From IMG/VR virus record IMGVR_UViG_3300028197_000002: a stretch of 64,000 bases of DNA; one strand, written 5' to 3'. How positions within the stretch are numbered: the stretch's first letter is position 1; each line of letters starts with the position of its first letter. The position numbers and the translations under genes are program-made. This stretch comes from a virus (Duplodnaviria; Caudoviricetes). This document shows, piece after piece, positions 1,302 to 34,970 of this stretch. The notes under the pieces are model-generated. The model was not told the origin of the DNA. It ran no database searches and saw nothing but the letters and a program-made list of their open reading frames with translations.

Positions 1302-2501
1302 ATGAAAAAAGCATCAGGAATTTTTTATACCGATGGGAAACAAGTTTTGTTACTCAAAAAAAGAAAAGGCAAAAGTAAAAACTCTTGGGGATTGCCCGGA
1401 GGTGGAATAGAAAAAGGAGAGTCTGCTTTAGATGCAGCCAAAAGAGAGTCTCGTGAAGAAATTGGAAAATGGGAAGGAAGAAATTTTGGTAAAGTAAGAG
1501 AATTAGAAAGAACTTCAGACGGCAGGAGATCAGAAATATCTCACAATTGGACTACTTTTTTTTACAAGGTAGAAAAACCTTTTAAGTGTAGATTAAGCAA
1601 AGAACATTCAAAATGGGATTGGTTTGATTTAGATGGACTTAAAAAAATAAAATTACATCCAAAGCTTAAAAAATATTTGAAAAAACATTTAAAAGTTGTA
1701 GAAAAAGAATTTAAAATAAACATAAAAGAAAGTTTTACTGATGAAGGGAAAGGAGCTACTTTTAAAGAATGGTTGGAAAATTCAAAAGTCGACGTATTAT
1801 CAGAAAGTATGGATGTGTCTGTGTCGGGCTACGTTGCGGACAGATCTAACAGAGATCTTCTTAGTTTGTCTAATTCTATGAGCAAAATAGTGAATAAAAC
1901 ATGGTTTAAACTTACTGATGAAGAGCGAGAAAAAATAAAAGTTCGACCCGTAGTAACTTCGGACGGAGATGATCATTTTGAAAAAGAAGGAACAATAAAT
2001 TTTTACACATCTGGCTGGAAAGATGAAGACGTTCAAGAAATATCTGACGGTCTTAAAAAATTCATGGATTCTAAAAATGTAAAGCATGGTCCGTTTCGGT
2101 TAGATAGAAGTGGAGTTTATGATTCCAGTGTGATTAGGATACCAATTCTTCAGATGCCTGTGGAAAAAGAAGGAAATAATCCTCCCGAAATGAACTTGTC
2201 TAATACAAATGCGATTGCTTTATTCAGAGATGTTTTAGGATTTGAATTTGATCAGACTCTTTCTGGATTTTCTATCCCTGCCTTCGAATTGCTTAAGGCG
2301 ATTGAAGATTTAAATGAACCCAAGGGCCAAGACAAAATAGACATTCATTCTAGAGATGCCTATCAAACAAAACGCAAAGATGGACCAACAATGATTCACG
2401 GAGGGCAAGATAGAAACGACATTCTAAGAAAGCTAAATGTAGTTAGAAAAATTGCTCAATGGGCAATAAAGAATGGTCATCAAGAAATATCTGTATTCTA
2501 A
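1302..2501 (+). CDS. Nudix hydrolase fused to an unknown C-terminal domain
   Basis: Canonical Nudix box GGIEKGESALDAAKRESREEIG; internal TFKEWLE motif. Confidence 0.85.
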   Translation: MKKASGIFYTDGKQVLLLKKRKGKSKNSWGLPGGGIEKGESALDAAKRESREEIGKWEGRNFGKVRELERTSDGRRSEISHNWTTFFYKVEKPFKCRLSKEHSKWDWFDLDGLKKIKLHPKLKKYLKKHLKVVEKEFKINIKESFTDEGKGATFKEWLENSKVDVLSESMDVSVSGYVADRSNRDLLSLSNSMSKIVNKTWFKLTDEEREKIKVRPVVTSDGDDHFEKEGTINFYTSGWKDEDVQEISDGLKKFMDSKNVKHGPFRLDRSGVYDSSVIRIPILQMPVEKEGNNPPEMNLSNTNAIALFRDVLGFEFDQTLSGFSIPAFELLKAIEDLNEPKGQDKIDIHSRDAYQTKRKDGPTMIHGGQDRNDILRKLNVVRKIAQWAIKNGHQEISVF

Positions 2502-3232
2502 TAATTTATATAATTTTGAGTTTCAATCATAGAGCTTACAGTTCCCATATCGTGCCAAAAACCTTTTAGCTTGTAAGACAACAAATTTTTTGATTGGACA
2601 TAGTGATTATTTACATCTGTTATTTCAAGCTCTCCTCTATTAGAGGTTTTGAGATAAGGAAGAATTTCAAAAACAGCAGGCGTGTACAAATACAAACCTG
2701 TGACAGCCCAGTTTGTTTTTGGGACTTTAGGTTTCTCAACTATATTTGAAACAACTCCTTGCCCATCTATTTCTGCAACTCCAAATCTTTCTGGGTCTGT
2801 TACTTCTTTTATGAAAATTGCTGCTTTGTTCGAATAGTCTTCAAATTCTTTTATTTCTTTTTCAAAAGAATCTTCAAAGAAATTATCGCCTAGTATAACA
2901 GCAAAATTTTCTTGACAAACAAAGACTTCAGATAGTTTTAAGGCTTGGGCTATTCCCGTTGGGCTTCTGTCCATTTCTTGAATTTTATAAGTTAAATTGA
3001 CATTTAAATCTTGCCCATCGCCTAAAGTTTGAACCATGTGCCCACAGTGATCTCTTGAAGTTATAATTAATATCTCTTCTATGCCACTTTGTTTAAGTGT
3101 ATTTATGGGATAGTGTATTATAGGCACAGCGCCTTTGTCTTTAGAATAAACAGGAGCCAAATGCTTGCATGTTGCATTTGTAAAAGGTGCCAAACGAGTG
3201 CCAAAACCTCCTGCGAGTATTACGCCTTTCAT
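2498..3232 (-). CDS. rmlA: Glucose-1-phosphate thymidylyltransferase (RmlA/RfbA-like NDP-sugar synthase)
   Basis: GVILAGGFGTRL, GIAQA, LGDNFF, VEKP, TGLYLY, RGELEITD, WHDMGT motifs. Confidence 0.9.
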   Translation of the reverse strand: MKGVILAGGFGTRLAPFTNATCKHLAPVYSKDKGAVPIIHYPINTLKQSGIEEILIITSRDHCGHMVQTLGDGQDLNVNLTYKIQEMDRSPTGIAQALKLSEVFVCQENFAVILGDNFFEDSFEKEIKEFEDYSNKAAIFIKEVTDPERFGVAEIDGQGVVSNIVEKPKVPKTNWAVTGLYLYTPAVFEILPYLKTSNRGELEITDVNNHYVQSKNLLSYKLKGFWHDMGTVSSMIETQNYINY

Positions 3233-3241
3233 AAGTATTTC

Positions 3242-3778
3242 TCAATTCATAAGATAGTTTTGTCTTGGACTCAAATCCATTTTTTTTAAATATTCAACAT
3301 CTTGTCTGATTTTCTCTTTGTCCCATTCTTCATAATTATCACCAAAAACAAATTTGTCATGTGGCTTTATATCCCACCAAACTGATCGTTCAAGTTCGTA
3401 TTCCAGCTGTTCTTCTTGCCACGTACAAAATCCAATATACATTTCGAATCTTGTTCTTTTATTAGATATTATTTTTTCTATATTTTCTGGGTGGCAGCTT
3501 TGATAAGTATTTGGGAAAACTTCTTCTTCTGAGTATTTTTTTGACTTATGAACTAAAAAGACTTTTCCGTATACGGGACCTCCTATTCTTAAATTGTTAT
3601 TTTTTGGAACAATTAAATTAGGATTGACTTCTTCCCATACGTCTTTAATTTTTTGATTCATTCGCTTATTAGTAATAACTCCTACATTACCAATATCTCC
3701 GTTTTTTAAAATCAATATTGTTGACTTATAAAAAATGGAGTCTTTAACGATAGGAGTTGATACTAAAATTTTACTCAT
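3242..3778 (-). CDS. YqgE/AlgH (DUF179) family protein
   Basis: ST(I)LIL...GVITNK, GGPV, YIGFCTWQEEQLEYEL..SVW pattern; start taken at MSK. Confidence 0.8.
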   Translation of the reverse strand: MSKILVSTPIVKDSIFYKSTILILKNGDIGNVGVITNKRMNQKIKDVWEEVNPNLIVPKNNNLRIGGPVYGKVFLVHKSKKYSEEEVFPNTYQSCHPENIEKIISNKRTRFEMYIGFCTWQEEQLEYELERSVWWDIKPHDKFVFGDNYEEWDKEKIRQDVEYLKKMDLSPRQNYLMN

Positions 3779-4349
3779 TAATAATAGTAACACCAGACAA
3801 AGGATCTTCTGTCAAAAGAGATTCTTCTGTATTTTCTTCTATGTTTTCTTCGTCATTTTTAACTTCTTTTAATTGTTTGTTATTGGAAGTTGAATGCACT
3901 ATATGTTCTAACTTACCTTCAGTATTAATTTGATCAGGTTGATCTAGTAAAAGCTTTTCTTCATTCATAACTTTCTCCTTGTTAGTTCTTTTCTTCCTAG
4001 TTTTTTCAGTCTTTTTTTTGACTTCTTTATTTATCTTTTGAGATTCTATTTTTTCTTCTACTTTTACTTTTTCTTCAGTTGTTATTGCTTTTTTCTGTGG
4101 GGCTTCTATGGTTCTAACTAAAGAAGCTTCTCTAGGAACCATTTGTAAAAAAGAACTATCTCCAGTCCAAGTTTGTCCGGGTTCAACCCATATCTTGCCC
4201 TCTGCCGATTTTTTAAATAGTTGAATAGAAGCGGTAGTGCTCCTATTTCTAAATTTGAACAAACCTTCGCCAGTTTCATTTTCTTTCTTTTTATTGAGTC
4301 TGGCTTGGTTTCTAGCTACTTTGGATTTGATATCATTTTTTTGTTTCAT
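3771..4349 (-). CDS. Hypothetical protein, Lys/Glu-rich
   Basis: 192-aa ORF, AGGTG SD, stop overlaps the next gene. Confidence 0.7.
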   Translation of the reverse strand: MKQKNDIKSKVARNQARLNKKKENETGEGLFKFRNRSTTASIQLFKKSAEGKIWVEPGQTWTGDSSFLQMVPREASLVRTIEAPQKKAITTEEKVKVEEKIESQKINKEVKKKTEKTRKKRTNKEKVMNEEKLLLDQPDQINTEGKLEHIVHSTSNNKQLKEVKNDEENIEENTEESLLTEDPLSGVTIINE

Positions 4350-29084: not shown

Positions 29085-30131
29085 ATGAATGACGAGTTTA
29101 GTCCGCAAAAAATAAATCCTGAAGACATCCAAAGTCCTCAGCCTGTTTCGTCGGCAAAAAACATAGAAACAGAGATGTTGCAAAACAATACAAAAGAAGG
29201 CGCACCAAAGTTTTCAGGCCCAGTTCCACCAGCATTTAAAAGTGCAGTTGCATCAAATAGAGGAGATGCGACATCTACATCTGCGACTAATAATCCACAA
29301 GAAATGAGAGTAACTGGAAGTTCAAAGTTAGAAGAATTAATTGCTGGAATTTCAGCAAGAGGTAATTTAGTTCATGAGAAAATTCTACTTCCCTCTAAGG
29401 GAAGATTTTATGATGGAGAAAATGGACCAGCTGATGGAGTAATTAATATAAGACCAATGACTGGAGAAGAAGAAGAGATATTGGCTACTCCAAGATTTGT
29501 AAAAAGAGGTCAAGCAATTGACATGATTTTCAATAAATGCATGAAAGAAAATTATGACTCAAAAAATTTCCTGACCCAAGACAGAACATACATGTTGATA
29601 TACCTTCGAGGTATTTCTTATACCCCTGAGTACGAAGTGGAAGTCAAAGACCCAGATTCTGATCAAACTTTTGCAACAAGCATAAATCTAAGTGAACTTT
29701 ATGTTGAATATTGTAAAGATGACTTTTCTTCAGAAAATCTTAGAGACACTCTTCCAGTTACAGGATATAGCTTTAGTTATAAGTTAGCCACTGGGAAGGA
29801 TGAAAAAACTGTTCAGGACTACAGAGACAGAAGAGCCAAGAACTTTGATTTATCTGGCCAAGCGGACGATACTCTTTTGTACAGAACAGCTCATATGATT
29901 TCTGAAATCGAAGGGTTGACTGATAAAACTGAGGTGCAAACGTTGCTTAAAAAGTTGCCCATTCAAGATGTTGCTTATCTTAGAACTGTTGTAAATGAAC
30001 CTCCTTTTGGAGTAGATACAAAGGTATCTGTCAACAACCCTTACACTATGAGTGATTTCGAAATGGAGTTACCTTTAGAAGCAAATTTTTTCTTCCCACG
30101 GGCAAAGAAGAAGGCAGTGACCCAAGCTTAG
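29085..30131 (+). CDS. Baseplate hub/tail assembly chaperone (gp26-like)
   Basis: ILLPSKGRFY, IRPMTGEEEEILAT, DRTYMLIYLRGISY, FGVDT, ends ELPLEANFFFP. Confidence 0.75.
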   Translation: MNDEFSPQKINPEDIQSPQPVSSAKNIETEMLQNNTKEGAPKFSGPVPPAFKSAVASNRGDATSTSATNNPQEMRVTGSSKLEELIAGISARGNLVHEKILLPSKGRFYDGENGPADGVINIRPMTGEEEEILATPRFVKRGQAIDMIFNKCMKENYDSKNFLTQDRTYMLIYLRGISYTPEYEVEVKDPDSDQTFATSINLSELYVEYCKDDFSSENLRDTLPVTGYSFSYKLATGKDEKTVQDYRDRRAKNFDLSGQADDTLLYRTAHMISEIEGLTDKTEVQTLLKKLPIQDVAYLRTVVNEPPFGVDTKVSVNNPYTMSDFEMELPLEANFFFPRAKKKAVTQA

Positions 30132-30148
30132 TCTTGTGGAACAATTTG

Positions 30149-30313
30149 ATGGAAGAGTTATTTTTTTTCATGTATCATTTGAAACAATCAAGAGATAATT
30201 TTATGTCTTTGCCCATAAATGAAAGAAAATGGCTTATTGACCGATTTGTTAAGCAAAAAGAAAAAGAAAATGAAGCAATGGAGTCTGCTAGGAGAAAGGC
30301 CAAAACAAGGTAA
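30149..30313 (+). CDS. gp51/T-like chaperone C-terminal ORF (not in ORF track), probably reached by -1 frameshift
   Basis: MEELFFFMYHLKQSRDNFMSLPINERKWLIDRFVKQKEKENEAMESARRKAKTR*; the frame is open from 30056 across the slippery site 30083-30092. Confidence 0.75.
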   Translation: MEELFFFMYHLKQSRDNFMSLPINERKWLIDRFVKQKEKENEAMESARRKAKTR

Positions 30314-30315
30314 AA

Positions 30316-31062
30316 ATGAATAAAGAAAGAAATCAGAACCTAGTAATAGGCGATACAGTAAACTTAAGATTATTTACTTATAATTCTAATAACAGACAAA
30401 ATGTAAGCTCTGTTGATAAAGTTGAAATATACTTTCTAGATCCAGAATTAATTTCTACAACTAACACTGATGGTCGAAGATTAGTAGCCACAATAGGTAG
30501 CGACCAAGTTCAAATAGTAGACGATCCTTTTGGAGGTCAGTACTTAGTAAGCGATGTCTTAGAAGATCAGGTTTATACGATTGGAAATTACAAGGATGTG
30601 TGGACGGTATCTTTCAATGCGGATCAACAAGGAACTGTTGAAAATTCATTTAATATAATGCCTAATTTATGGTATGCATCAGATACGCCTATAATATATG
30701 ATTTTTCTTTTGGGTTTAGACCAAATAGATTAAGAAAAGGAGAAAGAAGGTGGATTAACATTTATGTTGAGCCAAACGTACCGGAAATTTCTGATTTAAA
30801 AAGATATTATGCGAACCTAGCTGTTTCTTCTCCTTTATATTTAAATATAGAGCAGATTTGTGGAGATTGTGTGCCAAATGAAAAAGATTTAAGAATGGTA
30901 GTTGAAAATGAATTAGTCACCAACAGGAGAGGAACAGAAGGCAGTTATTTTATCGACACTGAAAAATTAGATATGGATCTTGGAATGTACAACATCTGGT
31001 TCGAAATGGAATTTGGAGAAAACAAATATATCTCTGACAATTTACAATTACAAGTATTTTAA
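30316..31062 (+). CDS. Putative baseplate/structural protein
   Basis: 248 aa, beta-rich, coupled with the tail fibre genes. Confidence 0.55.
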   Translation: MNKERNQNLVIGDTVNLRLFTYNSNNRQNVSSVDKVEIYFLDPELISTTNTDGRRLVATIGSDQVQIVDDPFGGQYLVSDVLEDQVYTIGNYKDVWTVSFNADQQGTVENSFNIMPNLWYASDTPIIYDFSFGFRPNRLRKGERRWINIYVEPNVPEISDLKRYYANLAVSSPLYLNIEQICGDCVPNEKDLRMVVENELVTNRRGTEGSYFIDTEKLDMDLGMYNIWFEMEFGENKYISDNLQLQVF

Positions 31063-31065
31063 AAA

Positions 31066-32550
31066 ATGGGCGCACAAACTTTAATAAAATTTAGACGAGG
31101 AACAGATACTGACTGGTCAAATGCTAACCCTACTTTATCCGTAGGAGAGCCAGGATATGACACGACAGCTGAAAAATTTAAAATTGGTGATGGAACAACT
31201 TCATGGTCATCACTTGGATACATAGGCGATGGCAATAGTGGAATAGATGGTTCTGGGACTTCTGGTAATATACCTAAGTTTAGCGATAGTGATACTATCG
31301 GTGATAGTGTGATTAAAGAATCGTCTGGTGGCGAGATAGGAATTGGAAGCATAACTCCAGCAGTTAAAGGCTCAGGAGCAACTGCTCTTTTGGATGTAGA
31401 TGGTCCTATTTTGGCTAGAGGGGGAGTCTCTGCTAATCAAACAGATGCAGGAGTTTTAGATTACGCTAGTAACATATTAAGAGTAAGAGCATACGGAAAC
31501 ACAAGTGGAACAGGCGAAATACAATGGAGAGTAGGTGGAGGTGGTGGTTCTGCTGATGCTCTTGGGATGTACCTTAATAGTTCGAAAGATCTTACTCATT
31601 ACGGCGACACAGCGTTAATTGCCGATGCCAGTTCTTATGAATTAAGCATTAGTGGTTCTGCTGCAACTTTAGGAGGAAATAGACTTCAGCTCTTAGGTGC
31701 TGAGACCGTGGTTAACAATGCCGGATCAACCATTGATTTCAGAGTTGAAGGTGATACTGATGCAAATCTACTATTTGTTGATGCTGATACAGATAGAGTT
31801 GGTATTGGAACGTCATCACCTTCTAGAAAATTACATGTTGTTGGAGATTTATTAATTGATGATGGTAGCGCTATAGTTCTTGATGCTAATGGTCTTAAAA
31901 TTACAGATGATACTATAGGGGCTACTTTAGACTCCAATTGTAGCGATGCTATAGTCATTGGAGAAGGAGCTAGAAATTATTCAGATAAATCTATTAACAT
32001 TGCAAATGGTAGATTTTCTAATAATGGAGATTGTCAAAAAATAAGTCAGGTGTTAAGAGGGTCGACTACTGATGCTAGTAGATTCTATCTATCTACTGAC
32101 GGAAGTCAGGCTGGAGTAATCCATAGCGGAGCTGTGTTTTTGGCAGGAACAGCGTATGGCAATATTGCTGGTATAGTTTTGCCAGATAACGCAGTATTTA
32201 CTTTTTCAATAAATATTTCTTGCAGAAAGCAAAGCAGCAACGATTCTGCCGCTTGGATAATTAAAGGCGCTGTCCGGAACAGTAGTGGTTGGGGCGGATC
32301 GAGCCAGACACTCTTCTCTGAAGCTTCGGTTACTTCAACAATGAATTACAATTTAATAGGCTCTCCTATTATAGAAAGCTTTATTGATTCTGGTTTAAGT
32401 GGAATAACTGCGGAGGTGACAACTTCGTACTACAATTCAGACACAACAAATTCTGTATCTAATGCATGGTTTGGTATAGAAGTTCATGGACTTGCCTCTA
32501 CTAACTTAAGATGGTCCGCTATGGTCGATGGTATACTTACTACATATTAG
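31066..32550 (+). CDS. Tail fibre/spike protein 1 with Mtd_N-type N-terminus
   Basis: IKFRRGT..WS.ANPTL..GEPGYDT...FKIGDG.T.W; repeated V/IGIG beta-strand motifs. Confidence 0.85.
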   Translation: MGAQTLIKFRRGTDTDWSNANPTLSVGEPGYDTTAEKFKIGDGTTSWSSLGYIGDGNSGIDGSGTSGNIPKFSDSDTIGDSVIKESSGGEIGIGSITPAVKGSGATALLDVDGPILARGGVSANQTDAGVLDYASNILRVRAYGNTSGTGEIQWRVGGGGGSADALGMYLNSSKDLTHYGDTALIADASSYELSISGSAATLGGNRLQLLGAETVVNNAGSTIDFRVEGDTDANLLFVDADTDRVGIGTSSPSRKLHVVGDLLIDDGSAIVLDANGLKITDDTIGATLDSNCSDAIVIGEGARNYSDKSINIANGRFSNNGDCQKISQVLRGSTTDASRFYLSTDGSQAGVIHSGAVFLAGTAYGNIAGIVLPDNAVFTFSINISCRKQSSNDSAAWIIKGAVRNSSGWGGSSQTLFSEASVTSTMNYNLIGSPIIESFIDSGLSGITAEVTTSYYNSDTTNSVSNAWFGIEVHGLASTNLRWSAMVDGILTTY

Positions 32551-32885: not shown

Positions 32886-34970
32886 ATGACAGTAGATTAT
32901 GGATCTCATGATTTAACAACTACAGGAGATGTTGGAATCAACACATCTTCTCCAAGCTTTAAGTTAGATGTCAATGGAACATTTAGCGCGAACAGTGTAA
33001 ACGTAAATGATGCATTTACCTTACCTACATCTGATGGTGCTCAAAATCAAATTCTGGTCACTGATGGATCTGGAAATGTGGCTTGGAGCACCTTGTCTTC
33101 TTCTGGTATAGACGGATCTGGAACTGCTGGCCAAGTGCCTAAGTTTAGCGATAGTGATACTTTAACTGATAGTGTTATTTCAGAATTGTCCAATAATGTA
33201 GGAATTGGAACAGCGAGTCCATCTGAAAAACTACATGTCGATGGAACCATCAGAGCAGACGATGGCATTGGAACTGAACAAGAATCCAGCACATTCATGA
33301 CATACCCCGGAGGAGGTCTTTATAGAACTGCAACTAGTACGAAAACTGGGTATATTAAAATAACAATGCCGCAATCTTGGCTTGCAGTCATGATAAAAAT
33401 GAGTTTTGATCTCTATGAATACAGCGCTCAAGACTTTACTACTTTTAAACTTTCTGGGTACATGTACACAAGCAGTGGGGGACAATGGATTAACACCGCT
33501 ACAAGTATGGACTCAAATTATGCAAATGATGTTAGATACTATGTTAGATTTGGACACGATGGAACTTACTGTGCTATTTACATATCAAAATGCGATGCCG
33601 CAGGAACAGATTTAGCCGAAACTAGTACTTGGAGTTATCCTCAAGCAGTCGTTAGAGATGTTCATGCTTCATTTTCAGGCACGTATGGTACTATGGATCG
33701 CTGGGCTGATGGTTGGGATGTTGATTTCACTACGACTCTTGGCACGATTACTGCAACCAGAGCTATAGGCAGAGCGTACCATATGCATGAAGCAGGCTAT
33801 GTTTTTAATGAATTGGGAGAAGATGTCGATTTTAGAATTGAGGGAAGTTCTGACACTAGTCTTTTTGTTGTCGATGGAGGTCTTGACAAAATTGGAATTG
33901 GAGAATCCTCTCCTAATTGCAAACTAACTATTGGTGAAAATATTGATTCTGGAATTGTTAATCCCGGAATATCTATAAATTTGGAAGGCGTGAATAAGCC
34001 ATCATTTACAACAAGAAGAACTACTTCTAATCCTGTCTTCTCTATTATGCCTTATTTGGGACAGACATATCTTTCTACTGGGTGTTACTATAACGGATCT
34101 AATTGGATACATTCTTCTTCAAATGCTTATAACAACATACTTGTTCTAGAACCCATATCGGGAGCTAATTGGTATTGTGGTGGCAACAGTAGCACTATAA
34201 ATAGCATTGCAAGCAATAAAAATCTATGGGACAGAACAGGCGCATGGAAGGCAGACATAAACACTTCTTCACTACAAGTTAATAGTGCGTTCACATTTCC
34301 TACATCTGATGGCTCTGCAAATCAGATCTTAAAAACTGACGGATCTGGAACCGTGACTTGGGCAGATGATGGATTTAATTTAATATCTGAAAGTGCTGAT
34401 ACGGTTACTATATCTGGAAATCTTGCTGTTTCTGGGACCACAACAACAATTAATTCAACAACAGTAACAGTAGATGATAAAAACATTGAATTAGGATCTA
34501 ATGCTAGTCCAACTGATGTAACTGCTAACGGTGGTGGGATAACACTAAAAGGATCTACAGATAAGACTATCATATGGGATAGCACTAATTCTAACTGGAC
34601 TTCCAGTGAGAATTTTAATATTGCTTCAGGAAAAGAATTTAAAATAAATAATGTGGCGATTTCAACAGCCAAAGCTTGGTGCTACTTCGGGGGCGGCACA
34701 AGTCCCTACATCGTTAGAGACTTTAATGTTAGTAGCGTAGCTGATGTCTCCGGAGGAAACTTTGGACAATATGTTGTTAATTTTGAGAATAACATGTCTA
34801 CTTCTAGTTATGTCTGTGTGACAGCTGGTGCTGTTACAACTGACGGTAGGGTAGCTACAGTTTGGGCCAATGCTAAAAGTACAAGCAGTGTCAATATCTT
34901 TGGATTGCCAAATTATGGCACCATAGCTTATGTTGACATAGGCGGTATGGACATAGCAATTTTTGAATAA
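32886..34970 (+). CDS. Tail fibre protein 2 (modular)
   Basis: Repeated AFT.PTSDG..NQIL.TDGSG modules, TTTINSTTVTVDDKNIELG, C-terminal AKAW..F..FNVSSV.D. Confidence 0.85.
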   Translation: MTVDYGSHDLTTTGDVGINTSSPSFKLDVNGTFSANSVNVNDAFTLPTSDGAQNQILVTDGSGNVAWSTLSSSGIDGSGTAGQVPKFSDSDTLTDSVISELSNNVGIGTASPSEKLHVDGTIRADDGIGTEQESSTFMTYPGGGLYRTATSTKTGYIKITMPQSWLAVMIKMSFDLYEYSAQDFTTFKLSGYMYTSSGGQWINTATSMDSNYANDVRYYVRFGHDGTYCAIYISKCDAAGTDLAETSTWSYPQAVVRDVHASFSGTYGTMDRWADGWDVDFTTTLGTITATRAIGRAYHMHEAGYVFNELGEDVDFRIEGSSDTSLFVVDGGLDKIGIGESSPNCKLTIGENIDSGIVNPGISINLEGVNKPSFTTRRTTSNPVFSIMPYLGQTYLSTGCYYNGSNWIHSSSNAYNNILVLEPISGANWYCGGNSSTINSIASNKNLWDRTGAWKADINTSSLQVNSAFTFPTSDGSANQILKTDGSGTVTWADDGFNLISESADTVTISGNLAVSGTTTTINSTTVTVDDKNIELGSNASPTDVTANGGGITLKGSTDKTIIWDSTNSNWTSSENFNIASGKEFKINNVAISTAKAWCYFGGGTSPYIVRDFNVSSVADVSGGNFGQYVVNFENNMSTSSYVCVTAGAVTTDGRVATVWANAKSTSSVNIFGLPNYGTIAYVDIGGMDIAIFE

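Follow-up and report, generated by a model that had tools for sequence, protein, structure and literature searches.

The window, i.e. the whole stretch of 64,000 nucleotides that was analysed, carries on its plus strand a gp26-like gene for baseplate-hub assembly, the 3' end of which is overlapped by a second open frame in the -1 register. The features of this locus are as follows:

29085..30131 (+): gp26-like gene for baseplate-hub assembly in frame 0, encoding the short form of 348 aa (PF12322, phrog_150)
30053..30055 (+): TGA closing the -1 frame upstream of the predicted slip site
30083..30089 (+): overlapping second heptamer A_AAT_TTT, partially conserved
30086..30092 (+): slippery heptamer T_TTT_TTC in frame 0, with TTT in the P site and TTC in the A site; the conserved, predicted slip site
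30092..30313 (+): predicted extension in the -1 frame, 73 codons plus TAA (30311-30313)
30092..30131 (+): dual-coding overlap, reading FPRAKKKAVTQA followed by the stop in frame 0 and LPTGKEEGSDPSL in frame -1, both readings being conserved
30132..30148 (+): segment leading from the gp26 stop to the ATG, an annotated spacer, conserved as the -1 codons V L W N N L
30149..30313 (+): 54-aa ORF with ATG start as reported by gene callers, equal to the C-terminal three quarters of the extension domain

The 348-aa protein matches the Pfam family T4_baseplate (PF12322; residues 116-328, 47.1 bits at a cut-off of 24.5, E 3e-12), to which T4 gp26 and gp51 belong, as well as the baseplate hub family phrog_150 (E 1.8e-15). 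No relative was found by sequence in the PDB, and the AlphaFold2 model of the gp26-like body (pLDDT 50) was too poor for fold comparison. Metagenomes contain 1147 homologues of the gene, many of them on contigs of 200-530 kb. The nearest GenBank record is the 595-kb uncultured phage LR756511 (48 % amino acid identity), which was also the sole match in a DNA search against GenBank phages. PF12322 is present in single copy in each of five huge-phage records, including two whole ones, a 533-kb genome (rated 100 % complete) and LR756511.

In the window, the gene is neighboured by small opposite-strand genes and a 248-aa ORF and does not lie between tube and tape measure genes. The 248-aa ORF (30316-31062, +) directly follows the predicted frameshift cassette and belongs to no Pfam or PHROG family. 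Homologues occupy the equivalent position in LR756511 and in the relative L095, and Xanthomonas phage Xoo-sp13 has an ORF matching in size and place; possibly, this ORF represents another hub component. It is followed by a 494-aa ORF (31066-32550, +; precomputed PF18454 Mtd_N) and a 694-aa ORF (32886-34970, +). Having in common the N-terminal segment GIDGSGT.G..PKFSDSDT..DSVI, they are probably paralogues that serve as fibre or receptor-binding proteins and share a module for attachment.

The frame-0 codons at 30081-30098 read GCA AAT TTT TTC TTC CCA and hold both heptamers in frame (30083-89 and 30086-92), as described in an earlier note on this DNA. All coordinates given there were confirmed, including those of the -1 frame, which is shut by TGA at 30053-55, then open from 30056 up to TAA at 30311-13, and includes the 54-aa ORF from ATG 30149. 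The same note had let the hub/chaperone ORF end at the heptamer; in fact, 13 further codons lead to its TAG (30129-31). Slippage at A_AAT_TTT or at T_TTT_TTC would give an identical peptide. The predicted long form comprises residues 1-336 plus 73 residues of the extension (409 aa in total) with the junction ..EANFF/LPTGK.. (slash at the point of the shift).

By itself the heptamer is no evidence for recoding, since the AT-rich window abounds in heptamers of the type X_XXY_YYZ that lie in frame: there are 334 of them (5.7 per kb), including four copies of T_TTT_TTC. The combination of a heptamer with a -1 frame running at least 30 codons beyond the stop occurs at three places in the whole window. 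The signal is raised above chance solely by comparison with relatives. On the minus strand at 3287-3296, T_TTA_AAA and A_AAA_AAA lie in frame 16-17 codons before the stop of a 183-aa ORF (3242-3793), with the -1 frame open for 46-47 codons; these heptamers may be chance occurrences in an AT-rich genome.

Conservation of the predicted slip site and of the -1 frame

The comparison set consisted of 80 IMG/VR loci with 48-92 % amino acid identity, 78 of which reach the site. T_TTT_TTC is invariant in all 78 as well as in LR756511 and the window, and the adjoining Leu, Pro and Glu codons are free to vary in the same relatives. Codon usage was analyzed for 69 unique genes across 135 conserved degenerate codon columns, yielding a median normalised codon entropy of 0.93. 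Zero entropy was found in just three of the 135 columns: N334 (AAT, 65/65), F335 (TTT, 69/69) and F336 (TTC, 69/69). The following Phe337 is encoded by TTC in 68 of 69 genes, and the other conserved Phe columns (n=10) use TTT and TTC at a ratio of about 50:50. Codons for Gly, Asp or Ser that take the place of this Asn still have T as their third base (GGT, GAT, AGT). The T retained in this way before TTT is the base that re-pairing in the P site would require.

The first A of A_AAT_TTT, the third base of an Ala or Ser codon, is retained by 52 of 61 unique sequences (85 %), the others having G or C. Since the A completing this heptamer is only 85 % conserved, T_TTT_TTC is regarded as the selected site; of the two overlapping heptamers proposed earlier, the latter is thus the conserved one. 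The ortholog alignment suggested in the earlier note as a check was carried out and found T_TTT_TTC to be kept at synonymous positions. On the evidence of these codon columns, the site is conserved beyond the requirement of the protein.

Downstream of the heptamer, 19-33 codons lead to a conserved EE.FFF motif; from the heptamer through the domain, a stop interrupts the -1 frame in none of the 69 unique sequences. As controls, the -1 frame in the upstream part of the same genes contains 7.6 % stops per codon, and the third frame over the heptamer-to-motif stretch is interrupted by a stop in 25 of 69. The stretch that follows the gp26 stop measures 20 nt in 63 of 69 sequences and 2, 11, 32, 35, 38 and 56 nt in the remaining six; the -1 frame is preserved in all of them. 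At 30132-30148, the -1 codons specify Leu in 48 of 54 sequences (by six different codons), Trp in 51 of 54 and Leu again in 51 of 54 (by at least five codons). Mean entropy by codon position is 1.12/0.55/1.29 in this stretch, the second position being lowest. The same coding-type pattern upstream of the ATG holds in the 31 sequences that keep the ATG like the window. The -1 frame upstream of the Met, the conservation of which the earlier note had also wished to see compared, is hence conserved as protein. The C-terminus in frame 0 (30120-30131, TQA followed by the stop) is oddly conserved, perhaps as a mere consequence of coding in the other frame, the motif DPSL of which it overlies in the -1 register.

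The Met of 30149 is replaced by an Ala or Leu codon in 25 of 64 unique relatives, ATG being present in 39 of 64. In 12 of these 25, no ATG, GTG or TTG is found between the heptamer and the EE.FFF motif. Gene callers report many stubs of 44-46 aa in the relatives, starting inside the extension domain. Stop and ATG of LR756511 overlap in the sequence TAATG. Since ATG 30149 is retained in the window and its subclade, an additional separate product of 54 aa may be formed. The previously considered independent start at this position is therefore present in the window and a free product may exist, but the start is absent in 25 of 64 relatives. Both the coding-type conservation upstream of the ATG and the loss of the ATG in relatives favour a frameshift over a separate gene.

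A stimulatory element is common, yet not obligatory, for programmed -1 ribosomal frameshifting. RNAalifold analysis downstream of the site (-1.65 kcal/mol, no covariation) revealed no conserved structure. A hand-picked TTCC/GGAA stem showed recurrent pairing, starts directly after the heptamer and is likewise devoid of covariation. The single-sequence fold of the window compared to shuffles gave z = -0.05, and a search of Rfam yielded no match. The GGAG 14 nt upstream, proposed as a stimulator of Shine-Dalgarno type, is present in the window (30065-68) but occurs at that place in just 4 of 61 sequences and is not conserved. Among Logan marine metatranscriptome contigs, a single one (259 nt, from a relative, with 17 differences) covers 29934-30192 without indel; as metatranscriptome contigs hide rare variants, it says nothing of expression level or of rare slipped transcripts.

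The extension domain and its carriers

The AlphaFold2 model of the 73-aa extension (pLDDT 88) consists of helices at residues 11-30, 34-38 and 42-72, the first of which is predicted to begin 9 residues before the Met of 30149. The extension is conserved as protein (alignment A2). No precomputed Pfam match exists for the 54-aa ORF, and Foldseek comparison of the extension model with viral predicted structures gave no match at E <= 0.001. With respect to T4 gp51, BLASTP of the extension retrieved nothing, hhalign returned E 0.34, and a local HMM comparison gave a weak match (p 0.006-0.05) at the expected place (gp51 residues 223-246). In a cluster of look-alikes from the Atlas, 39 % of the members carry PF28602. 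A weak, sub-threshold match was also obtained with DUF6760. Homology between the extension and the tail of T4 gp51 is suggested by architecture, annotation, the Atlas lead and the weak HMM match, and none of the scores is significant; in view of the empty BLASTP search and the hhalign E value of 0.34, statistical homology to T4 gp51 itself is not claimed. Pfam matches of the extension to Tma16 (43 of 55 members) were rejected as matching of Lys/Glu-rich helices.

An exhaustive search with the extension profile retrieved 252 proteins, nearly all of them small. Three metagenome proteins (P0143, P0145 and P0151; 115-123 aa) carry the extension domain in stand-alone form together with an N-terminal region of their own (about 40 aa) and an extra C-terminal motif, and represent a third way of supplying the domain. 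Since such forms occur in other lineages, the domain can work unfused.

A word-index search for longer proteins fused in frame had retrieved none. The exhaustive profile search detected one fusion, P0144 (327 aa), with the extension at its C-terminus. It is encoded in L095, where two tandem PF12322 paralogues (1883-3984) share 65 % mutual identity and about 50 % with the window protein. The heptamer is lost in the first copy (g1, 371 aa; GGG TTC TTT TTC) and its -1 frame is closed. The second copy (g2, i.e. P0144) has no N-terminal region of about 100 aa and continues in frame into the extension at ..GFF/LPSP.., which is exactly the FF/LP junction predicted for the frameshift product; it is followed by the homologue of the 248-aa ORF of the window. 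As read from these two gene sequences, L095 shows the T4 solution arisen inside the clade, and that short and long forms are both wanted.

The arrangement extends to distant relatives. In the cyanophages S-RIM8 and S-SSM6a and in Aeromonas phage Aeh1, gp26 ends in ..FF plus one residue; T_TTT_TTC stands in frame at a distance of four codons from the stop, and the -1 frame, which contains the domain, is open. The downstream ORF of S-RIM8 (45 aa) is annotated as "baseplate hub assembly catalyst" (gp51); nothing is annotated at this place in Aeh1. Agrobacterium phage Atu_ph07 (T_TTT_TTC) and Xanthomonas phage Xoo-sp13 (T_TTT_TTT) also have the domain in the -1 frame. No frameshift is annotated for the cultured carriers in GenBank, and no report of a frameshift in genes of the gp26/gp51 family was found in open-access papers and bioRxiv.

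In several Firmicute and cyanobacterial phages (SP-15, LIS04, Mel-JY01, HSE3 and Streptococcus phage GXN1), the domain is found in the +1 frame, and the annotated small ORFs are truncated or missing. The respective sites read TTT TTT N in SP-15, LIS04 and Mel-JY01, and TTC TTT CGT CCC in HSE3 and GXN1; a +1 shift may operate in these phages. With regard to the phase of the T-run, T_TTT_TTY is present in seven of seven -1 lineages examined and TTT_TTT_N in three of five +1 lineages, HSE3 and GXN1 being without a run. The gene order in Mel-JY01, HSE3, SP-15 and LIS04 is sheath, tube, PF12322 gene, small ORF, and tape measure or long tail protein.

Probable ribosomal slippage and its alternatives

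Judging from the sequence comparisons, the locus very probably encodes a conserved programmed -1 ribosomal frameshift by which a single PF12322 gene gives rise to a short and a long form. Most ribosomes would finish in frame 0 and produce the 348-aa short form. A minority would slip back by one base on T_TTT_TTC (U_UUU_UUC in the mRNA), with two Phe-tRNAs re-pairing on TTT TTT (tandem slippage), and would then read 73 codons in the -1 frame to yield the 409-aa long form with its three-helix C-terminal domain. Two proteins with a common N-terminal body would thereby be formed in a fixed ratio, the short one corresponding to T4 gp26 and the long one to T4 gp51 (PF12322 plus C-terminal domain). 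We infer that ribosomes, not RNA polymerase, slip at the site, and the efficiency of slipping is likewise an inference; the two products presumably act as chaperones towards hub and tape measure.

Identical proteins would result from transcriptional slippage, if RNA polymerase occasionally added one U on the T6 run and a minority of mRNAs thus carried the extension in frame. The conserved element is indeed a homopolymer run, T6 or T7 runs are also present in SP-15, LIS04 and Mel-JY01 with their domain in the +1 frame, and no ribosomal stimulator was found. However, six T are short for efficient slippage of a polymerase, the phase of the run matches the frame of the extension as predicted by tRNA re-pairing, and T is retained ahead of the TTT codon in spite of amino acid changes. 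The one metatranscriptome contig, of a kind that hides rare variants, contains no inserted letter. Transcriptional slippage is considered unlikely on these grounds, and a slip of the ribosome is favoured because the T-run fits the extension frame in those lineages that have a run.

Alternatively, no recoding might be involved, the extension belonging to a small gene of its own that is translated in the ordinary way, from ATG 30149 or by coupling to the gp26 stop. This would agree with the ATG, which the window has in common with 39 of 64 unique relatives, with the TAATG overlap of LR756511, with the stand-alone forms of the domain elsewhere and with the 54-aa gene reported by gene callers. It leaves unexplained why synonymous variation is zero at the heptamer, why conservation is of the coding type ahead of the ATG, why 25 relatives have no Met (12 of them no common start codon at all) and why the in-frame fusion in L095 lies at exactly FF/LP, and is rated as highly improbable. 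There is hardly any probability left for the heptamer being a coincidence, arising from conserved Asn-Phe-Phe-Phe in an AT-rich genome, or an assembly artefact due to homopolymer sequencing errors. In-frame heptamers are indeed numerous in the window (334) and the NFFF motif is invariant as protein; yet protein conservation leaves synonymous bases free, and the other Phe and Asn columns do vary. Errors are countered by about 80 independent assemblies from many samples and a wide range of base composition, all of which have T6.

Relation to lambda G/GT and to T4 gp26 and gp51

A conserved -1 frameshift of tail assembly chaperone genes, as in lambda gpG/gpGT, was reportedly described by Xu, Hendrix & Duda in 2004 (Mol Cell 16:11); P2 E/E+E' is another tail assembly chaperone pair. 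Like these systems and further pairs of tail assembly chaperones, the window gene would yield two proteins with a common N-terminal body in a fixed ratio, through a predicted -1 slip on an X_XXY_YYZ heptamer towards the end of its first ORF. In the distant PF12322 relatives, the gene pair takes the canonical place of the chaperones between the genes for tail tube and tape measure, whereas in the window and in T4-like phages generally it does not adjoin tube or tape measure genes, unlike G/GT. In further contrast to lambda, there is no sequence family in common with gpG, and the slippery sequence is T_TTT_TTC instead of G_GGA_AAG.

Leiman et al. 2010 (PMC3004832, Table 2) give T4 gp26 (208 aa) and gp51 (249 aa) as chaperones of hub assembly, and gp51 is described there as an essential protein that has no known function and is missing from the particle. 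With respect to domains, T4 gp26 consists of PF12322 only and T4 gp51 of PF12322 (residues 1-201) plus a 48-aa tail. Close homologues of T4 gp51 have precomputed matches to PF12322 and PF28602 (Gp51_C). Like the two products predicted for the window gene, T4 gp26 and gp51 thus belong to PF12322, and in either pair a C-terminal helical domain of about 50 aa is confined to the long form. In T4, however, they are encoded by two separate genes, as the earlier note had said, which are divergently transcribed and involve no recoding, whereas one gene of the window would provide for both forms. The window protein also differs from T4 by an extra N-terminal region of about 100 aa, and the similarity of its extension to gp51 is not significant.

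That the extension resembles gp51 and follows the logic of G/GT, as had been proposed from the window alone, gains support from several sides: T4 gp51 equals PF12322 plus a C-terminal domain which gp26 does not have; L095 contains an in-frame fusion at the predicted junction; cyanophage records name the downstream stub gp51; and the gene of distant relatives is placed between the tube and tape-measure genes. While this logic is upheld, statistical sequence similarity to T4 gp51 is not. Tails of the T4 type appear to follow the same logic of two chaperone forms as lambda with its G/GT. That the PF12322 proteins, i.e. T4 gp26 and gp51, are in T4-type phages what G and GT are among tail assembly chaperones is, in our estimation, as likely as not.

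If this is so, long-tailed phages in general would need a chaperone in both a short and a long form. Most T4-like and giant phages, cultured cyanophages and Aeh1 among them, would obtain the two by -1 frameshifting, some Firmicute phages by +1 shifts and the T-even phages by gene duplication, and the puzzling "catalytic" gp51 would simply be the GT-like form. T4-like phages are among the most studied and most abundant phage groups, and a widespread, unannotated recoding event would be added to them, namely to marine cyanophages and giant phages. This would explain why many T4-like genomes have a gene 51 stub of 45-60 aa or lack gene 51, would link hub assembly in T4 to the general chaperone principle of G/GT and would correct gene calls in hundreds of genomes.

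Another route to two products within the PF12322 family is provided by T4 gene 26' (NC_000866). It differs from the predicted frameshift in that an in-frame internal initiation leads to a shorter C-terminal product, with no C-terminal extension.
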